Positions 38,669-42,754 of a stretch of 64,000 bases of DNA are shown here, piece by piece. Position numbers and translations under genes: made by a program. Position 1 is the first letter of the stretch. Each line of letters begins with the position of its first letter. Under the pieces are notes generated by a model, which saw only the letters and a program-made list of their open reading frames with translations, had not been told where the DNA came from and searched no databases. Source of the stretch: an uncultured bacterium (GTDB lineage Bacteria; Chloroflexota; Anaerolineae; J036; Brachytrichaceae); the NCBI GenBank assembly GCA_903873965.1, contig CAIQQO010000165.1, positions 397-64,396 of the forward strand, given 5' to 3'.

Positions 38669-39454
38669 CTAGACCGGCGGCCATGGGATATTGCGTTGCG
38701 TGCGATTGGGACCCGGGTACACCTTCATGTCGAGAATCGCCTGGATGCGCCTCTTTAAAGCCGCCACTTCGTTCTCTTCAAGCAAATCGCGCAGTACCCT
38801 GCCCAAAAGTTGCTTGGCGCCAATACCGTCGCGCAACCGCTGCAGATCAGAGAGGTGCTCTGGTTGAATCGGCTGTCCGGCGAAGTCCCAGATCACGGTT
38901 CGTAACTTATGATCAGTATTGAACGTGATGCCATGATCGATCGCCCATACGTGTCCATGCTTATCCAGTAGACAGTGACCACTCTTGCGATCAGCATTAT
39001 TGGTAATCAGGTCGAAGAGCGCCAGCCTCATCAATTGGTCGGTATTAGCAGGATCGTCGCGAAAAGTAAAAAAGTGCAGGTCTTCATCATTGTCGATGTA
39101 GAGTTGCACAGAACCAGTGCCATGCGGACCGACACGCAACACGGTAGGCGGGATGAGGTCCCAGCCAAGCGCGCTGTTCACCTGGTAGGCGGCCACTTCG
39201 CGCAGGCACAAAGTGCCTTCCGGGAAGTCCCATAAAGGAGCCTCACCGAGGCGTGGTTTATAGACAGCCTTCAGTTGTGCTATATCGGCGGTGGGACTCG
39301 ACGCACCGATTTCGCCCATAATATTGACCAGAAAGGTGTAGTTTGAACTCCAGGGCAACAGCCCTTCGACCTCCATTTCACCCTTAGTCAGCAATTCCAG
39401 AATTTGCTGTGTGGTCAAACCCGTCTGTGTATCAGTCGATGTCTTAGTCATCAC
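38669..39454 (-). CDS. SCO1664-family protein (PI3/PI4-kinase-like fold, TIGR03843-type), function unknown
   Basis: GEMEVEGLLPWSSNYTFLV, AVYKPRLGEAPLWDFPEGTLCLREVAAY, FDLITNNADRKSGHCL and WAIDHGITF give a kinase-like catalytic-loop pattern. Confidence 0.7.
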   Translation of the reverse strand: MMTKTSTDTQTGLTTQQILELLTKGEMEVEGLLPWSSNYTFLVNIMGEIGASSPTADIAQLKAVYKPRLGEAPLWDFPEGTLCLREVAAYQVNSALGWDLIPPTVLRVGPHGTGSVQLYIDNDEDLHFFTFRDDPANTDQLMRLALFDLITNNADRKSGHCLLDKHGHVWAIDHGITFNTDHKLRTVIWDFAGQPIQPEHLSDLQRLRDGIGAKQLLGRVLRDLLEENEVAALKRRIQAILDMKVYPGPNRTQRNIPWPPV

Positions 39455-39456
39455 GC

Positions 39457-40002
39457 TCAGGCAAAAACGACTTCATCAGCATGACCATTACTGCGCGGGC
39501 AAAAATGCTCAAACTCATTATCAAGTGGTTTCTGACACAACGGGCACACCGGGCGACCGCGCGCAACGACCTCGGCAGACTGGCGCGCCATAGCATCCAT
39601 TTGTGATCGTGAACAGAAGAACTTGGTAACCGAAGCATCCTCTTCATCCACTTCTTCTGGCACCAGTTCACGAGCCACCAGGACGATCAGATCATGATCC
39701 TCATCGTAACCGAGACCCATCTGACCAATACGGTATTCGGGAGAGATCGGCTCGTCTAGGCTCATATCCATTTGCAGCTTCATGAAGCTGGCCCCTTTCG
39801 GATACTTCGACTTCAGTTCATCAAGCATCTGTTGAATCGCAACTCCCAGCGCCCTCACTTGCTCCTTCTCGCATAGCAGAGTGATTAGTGTGGCGCCGCG
39901 GCGTCCCTGCACATAGAACGTGCGGTGGCCCGGTTCGCCCACGGCGTCGGCTGTAATTCGAGTGACAGGATTCAACTCAATCGTGCTCTTTGGCATGCCC
40001 AA
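39457..40002 (-). CDS. DUF3090 (TIGR03847-type) protein with C-terminal zinc-ribbon, function unknown
   Basis: ITADAVGEPGHRTFYVQGR and C-terminal CPLCQKPLDNEFEHFCPRSNGH. It ends 2 nt before the SCO1664-family gene starts. Confidence 0.7.
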   Translation of the reverse strand: MGMPKSTIELNPVTRITADAVGEPGHRTFYVQGRRGATLITLLCEKEQVRALGVAIQQMLDELKSKYPKGASFMKLQMDMSLDEPISPEYRIGQMGLGYDEDHDLIVLVARELVPEEVDEEDASVTKFFCSRSQMDAMARQSAEVVARGRPVCPLCQKPLDNEFEHFCPRSNGHADEVVFA

Positions 40003-40181
40003 ATTTTACACCTGTGTTAGTATCATTCAATCAATGCTCGTGGCTTTATTTCAAGTTATATCTTTATTATCAGGCATGTCGCTACAGCAATCTCTGACAC
40101 GTACTTGCGTGATGGAAGTGCGTCGTCGCTTGCAAGCGATAGCTGACACTGCGTCAGTCATGTGCCGCACAGAGGTGGTTC

Positions 40182-41255
40182 ATGCGGGTCTCATCATCAC
40201 TGGTCACCCTGCTCCGAGTGTGCGGGGCATTAATCTTCGGACTGCTGGGCTGGAACATCGCCGATCTCATTCCATTCACAATTCTGCCTGCGCCGCTTAA
40301 CAACTATTTTGTCATTCATGTAGCGATGGGCGTCGGTATCGGCGTCCTGGCAATCGTACTTGTTCCGCCGATTCTTTCGGTGCACTTGCGGCGTTTTCTG
40401 GATGAGGTCAGCCGTGCCAGTGGCGCGCAGATCATCGCAGACTTTGTCGGCTTCACTACTGGTCTGCTCATTGCCGCACTGTTGGCATTCCCACTCGCGC
40501 TGTTGCCGGAGCCGTTCCGCCAGGTACTCCCGTTACTGTCGGCTATCCTGTTTGCGTTCCTCGGTGTGACCGTCATGAACACCCACTACCGAGAAATATT
40601 CACGATGGTCAATATCCGCCTCCCTTCGGGTAAAATCGATGAGCCTTTGGCCCTGCGCCCTGCATTCAGGGAGCCGCTGCTGCTGGACACCAGCGTCATC
40701 ATTGATGGCCGCATTGCGGATATCAGCGTCACGGGATTTCTACGCGGCGACTTGATCGTGCCTCGCTTTGTGTTAAGTGAGTTGCAGCATGTCGCTGATT
40801 CAGCAGAGGGCATGCGACGCGCACGCGGGCGACGCGGCCTGGAAGTATTGAAACGGCTACAAAAGGACCAGGCGACGCCCGTGAAGATAGTCGATGATGA
40901 TCCTGGCGGGAGCAGCGAAGTGGACGAAAAACTCGTCCTTCTGGCTAAACAGTGGACTTGCCCCATCGTAACGAACGACTTCAACCTGAATAAGGTCGCA
41001 TCGTTGCAGGGCGTGACGGTGTTGAATATCAACGATCTGGCCAACGCGGTGAAATCCGTGCTACTGCCTGGTGAAACGCTAACTGTGCGCGTAATCCAGG
41101 AAGGGAAGGAAAATGGTCAGGGAGTCGGATATCTGGATGATGGGACGATGGTGGTCATCGAAGATGGCCACAGTCACTTGAATCGCATGATTAATGTAAC
41201 AGTAACCAAAGTGCTGCAGACGGCTGCAGGCAAAATGATTTTCGCCAAACCTTGA
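40182..41255 (+). CDS. PIN/TRAM domain-containing membrane protein (YacL-like)
   Basis: Four N-terminal TM helices, PIN segment LLLDTSVIIDGRI..VPRFVLSELQ, TNDFNLNKVA, and TRAM-like C-terminus GETLTVRVIQEGKENGQGVGYLDDGTMVVIE. Confidence 0.8.
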   Translation: MRVSSSLVTLLRVCGALIFGLLGWNIADLIPFTILPAPLNNYFVIHVAMGVGIGVLAIVLVPPILSVHLRRFLDEVSRASGAQIIADFVGFTTGLLIAALLAFPLALLPEPFRQVLPLLSAILFAFLGVTVMNTHYREIFTMVNIRLPSGKIDEPLALRPAFREPLLLDTSVIIDGRIADISVTGFLRGDLIVPRFVLSELQHVADSAEGMRRARGRRGLEVLKRLQKDQATPVKIVDDDPGGSSEVDEKLVLLAKQWTCPIVTNDFNLNKVASLQGVTVLNINDLANAVKSVLLPGETLTVRVIQEGKENGQGVGYLDDGTMVVIEDGHSHLNRMINVTVTKVLQTAAGKMIFAKP

Positions 41256-42754
41256 ATATGAGTCAAACGATTTACAACGTTCTCTTACGCGAAAAAGTAA
41301 CTTTCAAGCCCCTTACCGAAGGGCAAGTTATGTTGTATGTATGCGGACCGACGGTTTATGACAATTCGCACCTGGGTCACGCCAAGACCTACGTGTCGTT
41401 CGACGTCGTACTGCGCTGGCTGCGTTACAACGGCAATAAGGTGCGCTATGTGCAGAACATCACTGACGTCGGCCATCTGTTGGATGACGGTGAGGATCGT
41501 ATTCTGAAAGGGGCGCGCCGCGAGAAAGTAGAACCGATGGAGATCGTTGAACGTTACATGCGTTCGTACTTTGAGGACATGGATGCACTCGGGGTCACTC
41601 GCCCGGATATTTCGCCACGCGCAAGCGCGCATGTTCCTGAACAGATTGAGATGATTCAGGAACTGATCGCGAAAGGCCACGCCTACGATGTGAATGGCAC
41701 GGTGTATTACAGCGTCGAATCGTTCAAGGAGTATGGCAAGCTGAGCGGTCGCCGGGTGGAAGAAATGGAAGCCGGTAAGCGTGTTGCGGTGCGCGATGAG
41801 AAACGCCATCCGATGGATTTTGCGCTATGGATCAAGGCGCCATCAAACCATGTGCTGCAGTGGCCATCGCCGTGGGGACGAGGTTACCCCGGCTGGCATA
41901 TCGAATGTTCAGCCATGAGCAACAAATACCTCGGCGCGACGTTCGACATTCACGGCGGTGGCGTCGATAACATTTTTCCGCACAACGAGTGCGAGATCGC
42001 ACAGAGCGAAGCTGCGCACGACGAAGCCTTTGCCAACTACTGGATGCTGACCGGCACGCTCCTGGTGGACGGCGTAAAGATGAGCAAGTCACTGGGCAAC
42101 TTCGTGACCATCAAGGATGCGCTTAAGCAGTACCGACCGGAAGCGTTGCGGCTTTTCATTCTGTCGGGTTTGTACCGCAGCCCTGCAGACTTCAGCGCCG
42201 CTGCACTGGATTCTGCTACCAAAGGCGCTGAGCGCATCAACACCGCGGCGCGCCGTGTGCGCAATACAATCAAGTCTGCCAAATCCGGTGATGCGGCGAC
42301 GAATGAGCGGCTGATCACGTTGCTCGATCAATACCACATGCGGTTTGCGAGCGCTATGAATGACGACTTCAACGCGCCACTGGCGCTTTCAGCGTTGTTT
42401 GATATGAGCAAGGACTTGAATAGTGCCATGGATGAAGGCACAGCGTCCATTGAAGTACTCGAACGCGCCAACACGATCTACACCGAACTGGGCAGTCAGG
42501 TGCTGGGCGTTATCCAGTCGGATATAGGAATAGGGGTCAGGAGACAAGGATCTGGCTGGTCTGCATCCGCGCCTATGGACGCAGAATCAGCTGAACGCGA
42601 ATCGACACTGATCCAAATGTTGATTGATATGCGCCTGGAAGCCCGCAAAGCGAAGGATTTCGCGCATGCCGACACCATTCGGGCACAGTTATCCAAAATC
42701 GGCGTCATATTGGAAGACGGGCCGCAAGGCACGACTTATCGAATCAGAAGTTAG
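41252..42754 (+). CDS. cysS: Cysteine--tRNA ligase
   Basis: MLYVCGPTVYDNSHLGHA (HIGH), WPSPWGRGYPGWHIECS, KMSKSLGN. 500 aa. 4-nt overlap with the PIN/TRAM gene. Confidence 0.9.
   Translation: MNMSQTIYNVLLREKVTFKPLTEGQVMLYVCGPTVYDNSHLGHAKTYVSFDVVLRWLRYNGNKVRYVQNITDVGHLLDDGEDRILKGARREKVEPMEIVERYMRSYFEDMDALGVTRPDISPRASAHVPEQIEMIQELIAKGHAYDVNGTVYYSVESFKEYGKLSGRRVEEMEAGKRVAVRDEKRHPMDFALWIKAPSNHVLQWPSPWGRGYPGWHIECSAMSNKYLGATFDIHGGGVDNIFPHNECEIAQSEAAHDEAFANYWMLTGTLLVDGVKMSKSLGNFVTIKDALKQYRPEALRLFILSGLYRSPADFSAAALDSATKGAERINTAARRVRNTIKSAKSGDAATNERLITLLDQYHMRFASAMNDDFNAPLALSALFDMSKDLNSAMDEGTASIEVLERANTIYTELGSQVLGVIQSDIGIGVRRQGSGWSASAPMDAESAERESTLIQMLIDMRLEARKAKDFAHADTIRAQLSKIGVILEDGPQGTTYRIRS

Follow-up and report, generated by a model that had tools for sequence, protein, structure and literature searches.

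The genes of an SCO1664-family kinase-like protein and its DUF3090 partner lie back to back with an independent unit of a PIN/TRAM gene and cysS in the 64-kb stretch of DNA analysed here (the window), and we hold this division into two units with high confidence. The minus-strand unit is a phosphatase-less copy of an ancient module of histidine phosphatase, DUF3090 protein and kinase, and the plus-strand unit a PIN/TRAM-cysS operon conserved throughout the class. Joined to a role of the module as a small-molecule kinase system, this is the explanation that we favour, with moderate confidence for the whole. The juxtaposition of the pair with cysS is a local rearrangement that arose once in the family of the window and carries no message on cysteine, thiols or tRNA-Cys.

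Genes and spacer of the locus

The four genes of the initial annotation (TIGR03843 kinase-like, DUF3090/TIGR03847, PIN/TRAM and full-length cysS) were recovered by ORF and profile scores where it had placed them (Table 1). Its 2-nt gap between the DUF3090 stop and the GTG start of the kinase gene, its 4-nt overlap of the PIN/TRAM stop with the TTG start of cysS and its divergent spacer of 179 nt (40003-40181) were also reproduced. Taking the ATG at 39451 as the kinase start, as in the database protein P0001, widens the first gap to 5 nt, and a true cysS start at the ATG at 41258 would turn the overlap into a 2-nt gap. For DUF3090, the alignment of homologues favours the ATG at 39996 (179 aa) as the likely true start, in which case the spacer measures 185 nt. 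On the same strand, an LCP gene follows the kinase gene after about 76 nt, with galT next, and co-transcription of the kinase and LCP genes is possible. This LCP-galT arrangement after the kinase is common only to the window and one relative, G346.

Table 1 Features of the locus, with positions in the window
Feature	Position	Strand	Basis or remark
galT	35995-37134		after LCP gene
LCP (LytR-CpsA-Psr) glycopolymer transferase	37186..38592	-	ORF, family matches, neighbourhood comparison
SCO1664-family (TIGR03843) atypical kinase, 260-261 aa	38669..39454	-	ORF, profile score, alignment, model, fold search
DUF3090/TIGR03847 partner, 181 aa as ORF	39457..40002	-	ORF, profile scores, alignment, model, fold search, pI
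Promoter-like site TTGAAT-16-TAAAAT	40003..40030	-	pattern search, sequences read by eye
Perfect 14-bp palindrome TCGCTTGCAAGCGA	40126..40139	.	single copy in window
YacL-like membrane-anchored PIN/TRAM protein, 357 aa	40182..41255	+	domain matches, neighbourhood comparison
Canonical cysteine--tRNA ligase (cysS), 500 aa	41252..42754	+	ORF, domains, profile score

The -10 box of the promoter-like site ends 6 nt ahead of the DUF3090 ATG, a leaderless-type layout, and both family relatives carry a TAGAAT box, read by eye, 6-8 nt ahead of the corresponding ATG. The palindrome pointed out in the initial annotation is present in the spacer, perfect and 14 bp long, but it is conserved in no relative and unique to the genome of the window: none of the 28 class relatives carries it upstream of PIN/TRAM. 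A perfect 14-bp palindrome is expected by chance in about 1% of spacers of such size (our estimate); it has no Rfam match and a fold z-score of -0.34.

The kinase and its partner

The kinase-like protein (261-aa ORF) contains the motifs NNADRKSGHCL and WAIDHG, as read earlier from its translation, and affiliates with TIGR03843 (281.7 bits against a cut-off of 172.4, or 275 bits when the genome was searched). Its match to PF00454, 19.6 bits, is below the gathering cut-off of 27.1; among 22 relatives, 21 match PF00454 (best 1e-7). An alignment of 22 sequences shows an invariant catalytic set of K65 (VYKP), D154 in NNADRKxGH, H159 and D172 in IDHG, and an equally invariant C-terminal tail, R..PWPPV. 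In the models (pLDDT 84) the kinase adopts a fold like that of type II PI4-kinase, with its catalytic residues intact, and the best PDB matches in Foldseek are PI4K type II alpha/beta (4hnd, 4hne; E 2-3e-7, probability 1.00). Both the invariant residues and these matches speak for an active enzyme, probably an ATP-dependent phosphotransferase with a minimal version of this fold. Other near folds are the protein kinases Fam20C, CtkA and Rio and the sugar kinase-type Fam20, so that the closest folds span lipid, protein and sugar-type kinases and the predicted fold alone does not decide the substrate. A HipA-type toxin kinase was rejected: HipA_2 Pfam matches are weak (8/22 members, E 0.03 or worse), the partner is a DUF3090 protein without HTH, and the module is single-copy with its core gene order kept in two phyla.

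The partner protein scores 151.4 and 151.1 bits against TIGR03847 and DUF3090/PF11290 (cut-offs 117.25 and 27). It ends in the CPLC and CPRSNGH motifs already reported, spaced by x11 and not by x12 as first written. They belong to a C-terminal CxxC...HxC zinc knuckle, set between invariant GR and NG motifs, that is dispensable in the family. The model (pLDDT 89) contains two beta-beta-beta-beta-alpha repeats, and weak Foldseek matches to Pur-alpha/Whirly-like proteins (E 0.02-0.03, probability up to 0.99 for 3k44_B) suggest an acidic double repeat of PUR/Whirly-like type. With a pI of 4.96 (family median pI 4.8, median net charge -10), the protein is too acidic to be a likely nucleic-acid binder. 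It would rather be a non-catalytic partner, a putative obligate subunit or substrate-presenting adaptor, presumably made in fixed proportion with the kinase.

Composition of the module across bacteria

As the initial annotation stated, the pair is the TIGR03843/TIGR03847 module catalogued for Actinomycetota and Chloroflexota, both proteins scoring above the curated cut-offs; a literature search found no paper assigning a function to it, again in line with that annotation. The module is present in 231/401 Chloroflexota and 100/201 Actinomycetota genomes sampled. The conserved unit is histidine phosphatase (TIGR03848, the MSMEG_4193 subfamily), DUF3090 (TIGR03847) and SCO1664 kinase (TIGR03843), in this order. 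All three occur in 60/60 Actinomycetota loci; the triad corresponds to Rv2135c-Rv2134c-Rv2133c and MSMEG_4193-4191 in named genomes. In a first set of 140 loci, 118 have DUF3090 immediately upstream of the kinase, 22 have a kinase without adjacent DUF3090, and about 75 include a histidine phosphatase; in two loci (L106 and L156) one ORF encodes both phosphatase and DUF3090. The 64-kb window contains no histidine phosphatase, hence none directly upstream of DUF3090. Nor was TIGR03848 found over its cut-off of 203.85 bits in the genome of the window (75% complete), where the best match, on another contig, reaches 104 bits.

Among 200 loci, 140 have a histidine phosphatase and none has both this and an adjacent IMPase-family gene, which occurs in 9 loci that represent only 2-3 lineages and in most of which the IMPase gene converges on the kinase gene instead of sharing its orientation. 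In most lineages a dedicated phosphomonoesterase would complete the module, usually the histidine phosphatase and in a few an IMPase-family enzyme.

Substrate of the module

Since the IMPase-family gene is confined to loci without a histidine phosphatase, a small-molecule substrate is suggested; to our knowledge, only small-molecule substrates are known for the IMPase family. We tentatively propose a soluble sugar, polyol or nucleotide-type hydroxyl compound that may be phosphorylated and then dephosphorylated within one pathway. Among named proteins, those nearest to the phosphatase are PspA, CobC and dPGM-type enzymes, and Rv2135c is an acid phosphatase (PMC3866925), which fits a bias towards small molecules.

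It is unlikely, by comparison, that the kinase phosphorylates a protein, with the phosphatase reversing the modification and DUF3090 serving as regulator, antitoxin-like inhibitor or substrate. Such a protein switch would have parallels in HipA, CtkA or Rio kinases or in partner-switching modules. The fold matches to Fam20, CtkA, Rio and HipA and the weak HipA_2 matches are in keeping with it, and a kinase with a phosphatase and a small partner is a set-up typical of reversible switches; protein contacts can be mediated by Whirly-like folds, and one DUF3090 member has a weak SsgA match (E 0.12). However, PI4KII outscores every protein kinase in the fold search, and the single-copy module with its conserved core order differs from toxin-antitoxin systems. 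The DUF3090 alignment contains no invariant Ser, Thr or Tyr, and the partner is therefore probably no phospho-acceptor. The IMPase family that appears in place of the histidine phosphatase, which is not known to act on anything but small molecules, argues in the same direction.

A membrane-lipid kinase acting on phosphatidylinositol, another inositol lipid or a polyprenol carrier is rather improbable. Type II PI 4-kinases are the top structural matches, PF00454 is matched by nearly all members as given above, and the envelope-related neighbours (uppP directly upstream of the triad in 8/60 Actinomycetota loci, LCP and galT after the kinase in the window) would suit such a function, as would the reported presence of Rv2135c in membrane fractions (PMC3866925) and hints from Tn-seq screens under membrane or drug stress (PMC10127668, PMC11329110). 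Against this, inositol-1-phosphate synthase is encoded in all module-less families tested and was missing from the matches in at least 10 genomes that bear the module and are mostly 97-100% complete (G031, G076, G094, G011, G024, G036 and others). Moreover, no membrane-anchoring segment was noticed on inspecting sequence or model, and the envelope-gene neighbours are lineage-specific. A soluble small molecule remains the substrate class that we prefer.

The cysteine ligase genes near the module

The cysS product scores 507 bits against TIGR00435 (cut-off 340) and its translation carries the HIGH (HLGH) and KMSKS motifs, CGPT and WHIEC, the Zn ligands and the DALR and CysS_C domains. An assignment as MshC (TIGR03447), defined by more than 485.1 bits and an architecture of about 410 aa without anticodon-binding domain, was ruled out for this protein of 500 aa with DALR and CysS_C, which scores 253 bits. 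It is translationally coupled to the gene of the PIN and TRAM domain protein. PIN/TRAM precedes cysS on the same strand in 26/28 other class genomes from different families; it is thus the first gene of a separate class-wide PIN/TRAM-cysS unit outside the kinase module, and this pairing is the reason for the presence of cysS near the kinase pair.

The initial annotation had proposed a recurring link of the pair to Cys-ligase genes across phyla, which neighbourhood counts refute outside MshC-bearing actinomycetes. No cysS or mshC accompanies the pair within about 10 kb in any of 80 cross-phylum loci, nor within 10 kb in any of 58 other Chloroflexota loci; in the Chloroflexota sample, cysS is near the pair in only 2/60 loci, both from the family of the window. 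The pair stands beside PIN/TRAM-cysS only in the three genomes of this family (the window, G121 and G346), with cysS within 1.3 kb. Its further statement that the actinobacterial pair is found near mshC and a putative phosphomutase was borne out for mycothiol-making actinomycetes, in 13/60 sampled loci (MshC 580-670 bits), where the kinase is followed by mshC at a distance of 0.1-1.5 kb and the phosphomutase-like protein is the histidine phosphatase; 47/60 Actinomycetota loci have no Cys ligase nearby. In actinomycetes the SCO1664-mshC linkage has been called invariable (PMC4255298). The mshC linkage, found in 13/13 high-scoring actinomycete loci except L193, may reflect a lineage-specific tie of the module to mycothiol.

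A function of the module in the metabolism of cysteine, low-molecular-weight thiols or tRNA-Cys, with the adjacency of cysS and of mshC expressing one shared function, is accordingly very improbable. In its favour are the true MshC downstream of the kinase in these 13 loci, the linkage described as invariable and the closeness of cysS in the three family genomes. Yet the module is present in the 231 Chloroflexota genomes counted above, and many Actinomycetota lineages have it without MshC or nearby cysS. Furthermore, the cysS of the window is accounted for by the class-wide PIN/TRAM-cysS pair, its unit is transcribed divergently from the kinase pair, and a cysS within 3 kb would occur by chance once in about 80 family-level lineages with a likelihood of about 17% (our estimate); the strong acidity of DUF3090 argues against tRNA binding. 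Least credible of all is a model, patterned on the phosphorylation of GltX by HipA, in which the SCO1664 kinase would directly phosphorylate class-I Cys-ligase-fold enzymes (MshC of actinomycetes, CysRS of the family of the window), with DUF3090 as modulator and the phosphatase as reset: it would make both independent Cys-ligase juxtapositions meaningful, but nearly all lineages have the module without a nearby Cys ligase.

Implications and comparison with known systems

The pair in the window is an ordinary copy of a widespread, catalogued family, and nothing is new in the copy itself. Among the conserved unknowns of Actinomycetota and Chloroflexota, the module ranks with the more widespread, and it also occurs in the tuberculosis bacillus. 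It is useful to know what its neighbours do not imply: adjacency to cysS is a family-specific accident, and adjacency to mshC occurs in mycothiol producers alone. The structure-based description (a predicted PI4KII-like kinase, an acidic PUR/Whirly-like partner and an optional zinc knuckle) narrows the search for the substrate, as does the apparently interchangeable type of phosphatase.

Compared with the TIGR03848/TIGR03847/TIGR03843 triad of Actinobacteria and Chloroflexi, the pair in the window shares gene order, tight coupling, invariant motifs and scores over the cut-offs, but has no adjacent histidine phosphatase; its neighbours are the divergent PIN/TRAM-cysS and the downstream LCP-galT, in place of mshC, PAC2 or uppP. 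As with MshC beside the actinomycete triad, a class-I Cys-ligase-fold gene is close to the kinase. Unlike MshC, the Cys ligase of the window is a full-length CysRS, divergently transcribed and part of another operon.

Eukaryotic PI4KII alpha/beta (PDB 4hnd, 4hne, 4wtv) is the best fold match of the kinase (E 2e-7, TM about 0.56, 20% identity) and follows an equivalent catalytic-loop logic, NxDRxxxN/H then IDxG. In contrast to PI4KII, the bacterial kinase is shorter by about 100-200 residues, carries His instead of Asn five positions beyond the catalytic Asp, and has a phyletic pattern that does not track inositol synthesis; no palmitoylation motif or membrane-binding insert was seen in it. Lastly, the YacL region of Bacillus has the synteny yacL ... 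gltX-cysE-cysS and, like the window, encodes a PIN/TRAM membrane protein in the neighbourhood of cysS, whereas the two genes are immediate and often overlapping neighbours in the window and its class.

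Gene content of the locus

The four genes of the initial annotation all lie where it had placed them, and its gene identities are borne out by the family scores. The DUF3090 protein carries the reported cysteine motifs; these are separated by 11 residues and not by the 12 first given. Homologue alignment suggests the ATG at 39996 as the start of DUF3090, and the spacing between DUF3090 and the kinase-like gene (TIGR03843, hereafter kinase) is 2 nt with a GTG start or 5 nt with an ATG start. Where relatives of the kinase are named, they belong to Chloroflexota of the Anaerolineae, Thermoflexales and Caldilinea type. 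The genome assembly (G000) comprises 5.19 Mb in 497 contigs and is 75% complete.

Coordinates and assignments of features in the window and in loci from other contigs and genomes
Feature	Position	Strand	Assignment
Kinase-like ORF, 261 aa	38669-39454	-	TIGR03843 (SCO1664 family) 281.7 bits, cut-off 172.4; PF00454 only sub-threshold
DUF3090 ORF, 181 aa	39457-40002	-	DUF3090/PF11290 and TIGR03847, each ~151 bits
Palindrome TCGCTTGCAAGCGA	40126-40139		Single copy in the window
PIN+TRAM protein, 357 aa	40182-41255	+	Domain matches
cysS, 500 aa	41252-42754	+	TIGR00435 507 bits; MshC model only 253, cut-off 485
Enolase	42783-44120		
LCP glycopolymer transferase, galT, dTDP-glucose-4,6-dehydratase-like gene	33505-38592	-	
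ORF beyond galT	34656-36008	+	
Second CysRS of G000, 466 aa	contig C2, L003:1486-2886	-	TIGR00435 416 bits; closest to PRK14536 type
Phosphatase-DUF3090 single ORF	L106:8702-9883		
Phosphatase-DUF3090 single ORF	L156:8163-9629		

Association of the kinase pair with Cys-ligase genes

Recurrence of a cysS link was tested in three independent sets of loci. The first comprised 80 loci with 10-kb flanks, taken from named Chloroflexota, Actinomycetota and Methylomirabilota/Rokubacteria genomes; none contained a homologue of cysS or mshC, and one held a 44-bit fragment. In the second, 60 regions of ~20 kb each from a sample of many Chloroflexota families, DUF3090 and kinase were divergent from PIN/TRAM and cysS only in L120 and L121, from the two other genomes of the window's own family (G121 and G346, respectively); the remaining 58 loci had no nearby cysS. 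The third consisted of 60 regions from an Actinomycetota sample. Here a CysS homologue was located 0.1-1.5 kb downstream of the kinase in 13 loci, three of which were scanned and found to encode true MshC (580-670 bits on TIGR03447), and was absent from the other 47 regions. This confirms the actinobacterial context proposed by the initial annotation, and linkage of the module to mshC in actinomycetes has been reported (Chandra and Chater, PMC4255298). The linkage is real yet limited to mycothiol producers, since most Actinomycetota loci (47 of 60) lack the homologue and MshC is missing altogether from two actinomycete MAGs of the first set. Both in age and in distribution, the module extends far beyond mycothiol. 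The link to Cys-ligase genes across phyla, from which a role in cysteine, thiol or tRNA-Cys metabolism had been proposed, is therefore wrong: it was found in none of the 80 loci of the first set, only within the window's family in the second, and not in 47 of 60 loci in the third. The second CysRS of G000, whose gene adjoins an ABC exporter gene, was rejected as an MshC-like paralogue, being a PRK14536-type CysRS with 223 bits on the MshC model.

The proximity of cysS in the window is explained by its pairing with the PIN/TRAM gene. The PIN/TRAM protein served as query against 40 class genomes, one per family, and 28 non-self loci (L245-L272) were retrieved. In 26 of these, cysS closely follows it in the same orientation, usually after a gap of 20-150 nt and often with overlapping genes. 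DUF3090 and kinase accompanied this unit only in the window, G121 and, from the second set, G346. PIN/TRAM-cysS is hence a class-wide operon, beside which the kinase pair was put once, by a rearrangement specific to this family. With roughly 80 family-level lineages examined, the chance of one random placement of cysS within 3 kb is estimated at ~17%. The class-wide pairing itself suggests a functional tie between the membrane PIN/TRAM RNase-like protein and CysRS.

In G121 and G346 the divergent spacer measures only ~70-90 nt and lacks the palindrome, which was also absent upstream of PIN/TRAM in every class relative checked and was thus rejected as a conserved operator. An RNA element was likewise rejected, because an Rfam search of the spacer gave no match and its fold was no better than that of shuffled sequence (z = -0.34). 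A promoter-like TTGAAT-16-TAAAAT ends 6 nt ahead of the DUF3090 ATG, and a TAGAAT box precedes the ATG by 6-8 nt in both relatives; the position of these boxes suggests a leaderless or near-leaderless transcript.

Composition of the module

Only DUF3090 and a histidine phosphatase of the TIGR03848 type were stable neighbours of the kinase in the first 140 loci. By HMM, 118 of them had DUF3090 immediately upstream of the kinase in the same orientation, and in ~75 of the 140 the phosphatase preceded DUF3090; the three-gene order was found in all 60 Actinomycetota loci. In two Chloroflexota lineages phosphatase and DUF3090 form a single ORF (L106 and L156). An apparent DUF3090-kinase fusion in L220 is frameshift-like and was left uncounted. 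The window copy is an ordinary, phosphatase-less member of this catalogued yet unexplained module. No paper in the literature characterises TIGR03843 or DUF3090 or gives either a function, and the publications found on the module amount to synteny remarks, Tn-seq table entries and a study of the acid phosphatase Rv2135c.

All the remaining neighbours vary with the lineage. Actinomycetes have mshC, a PAC2-like gene and uppP, and other Actinomycetota have an LLM-type oxidoreductase, an acyl-CoA synthetase and senX3/regX3/pstB-like genes. Homoserine dehydrogenase is a neighbour in some of the Anaerolineae, Ogt occurs chiefly in Actinomycetota loci, and Dehalococcoidia-type loci carry an IMPase-family gene. 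Among the 60 Actinomycetota loci, uppP (undecaprenyl-diphosphatase) was directly upstream of the triad in eight (L183-L185, L189, L190, L192, L195, L205), and the LLM-class oxidoreductase ~4.5 kb upstream in 16 others. Enolase lies 3-8 kb from the module in the window and in the Actinomycetota and Chloroflexota loci L204, L211, L212, L215, L217, L239, L240, L099 and L046, which is probably lineage synteny. Downstream of the kinase and on its strand, both the window and G346 carry genes for an LCP glycopolymer transferase and galT; these envelope-glycopolymer genes may share a transcript with the kinase pair. In the window, the plus-strand ORF beyond galT is followed by a dTDP-glucose-4,6-dehydratase-like gene on the minus strand.

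Predicted structures

Sequence searches for homologues of solved structure returned nothing significant for the kinase or DUF3090. The structural model of the kinase (pLDDT 84) best matched human type II PI 4-kinases (E 2e-7, TM 0.56, 20% identity), followed by Fam20, CtkA and Rio kinases. Its invariant residues correspond to the usual catalytic set: K65 (VYKP), D154 and H159 (NNADRKxGH) and D172 (IDHG). The C-terminal R..PWPPV tail is likewise invariant; the monomer model leaves it disordered, and it could act as a docking motif. DUF3090 (pLDDT 89) was modelled as two beta-beta-beta-beta-alpha repeats with a C-terminal zinc knuckle; its best matches, to Pur-alpha repeats I-II and Whirly proteins, were weak (E 0.02-0.03). 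The CxxC...HxC knuckle is lost in nine of 26 aligned homologues (L040, L043, L049, L063, L093, L045, L057, L058, L089), all of which retain the invariant GR and NG motifs on either side, so the zinc site is structural and dispensable. The alignment contains no invariant Ser, Thr or Tyr, and the protein is strongly acidic (median pI 4.8, net charge -10); both features argue against DUF3090 as a phospho-acceptor or a tRNA/DNA binder.

Phosphatases and substrate class

Two metabolites were rejected as obligate links of the module. Inositol-1-phosphate synthase (PF01658) is encoded by 364 of the 401 Chloroflexota genomes and occurs in every module-less family, and at least 10 genomes that carry the module, mostly near-complete ones, gave no match to it. 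For F420, cofD was present in seven of 10 module-bearing genomes (nine near-complete and the 75%-complete G000) versus one of five module-less near-complete genomes, at most a loose correlation, as three near-complete carriers (G094, G223, G283) had no detectable cofD.

The window contains neither a histidine phosphatase nor an IMPase-family gene, and the 75%-complete G000 gave no TIGR03848 match over the cut-off. Across 200 loci, the histidine phosphatase was present in 140, an adjacent IMPase-family gene in nine and both in none. These nine represent only two to three lineages (L068, L075, L090, L102, L111, L176, L179, L124, L125), and the IMPase-family gene adjoins the kinase only where the histidine phosphatase is missing, a pattern that looks like non-orthologous displacement. 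To our knowledge, IMPase-family enzymes act solely on small phosphomonoesters. Among named proteins, the histidine phosphatase is closest to PspA, CobC and dPGM-type enzymes. Based on the mutual exclusion of the two phosphatases, the specificity of IMPases, these relatives and the acid phosphatase activity of Rv2135c (PMC3866925), we tentatively favour a soluble small molecule as the substrate of the kinase.
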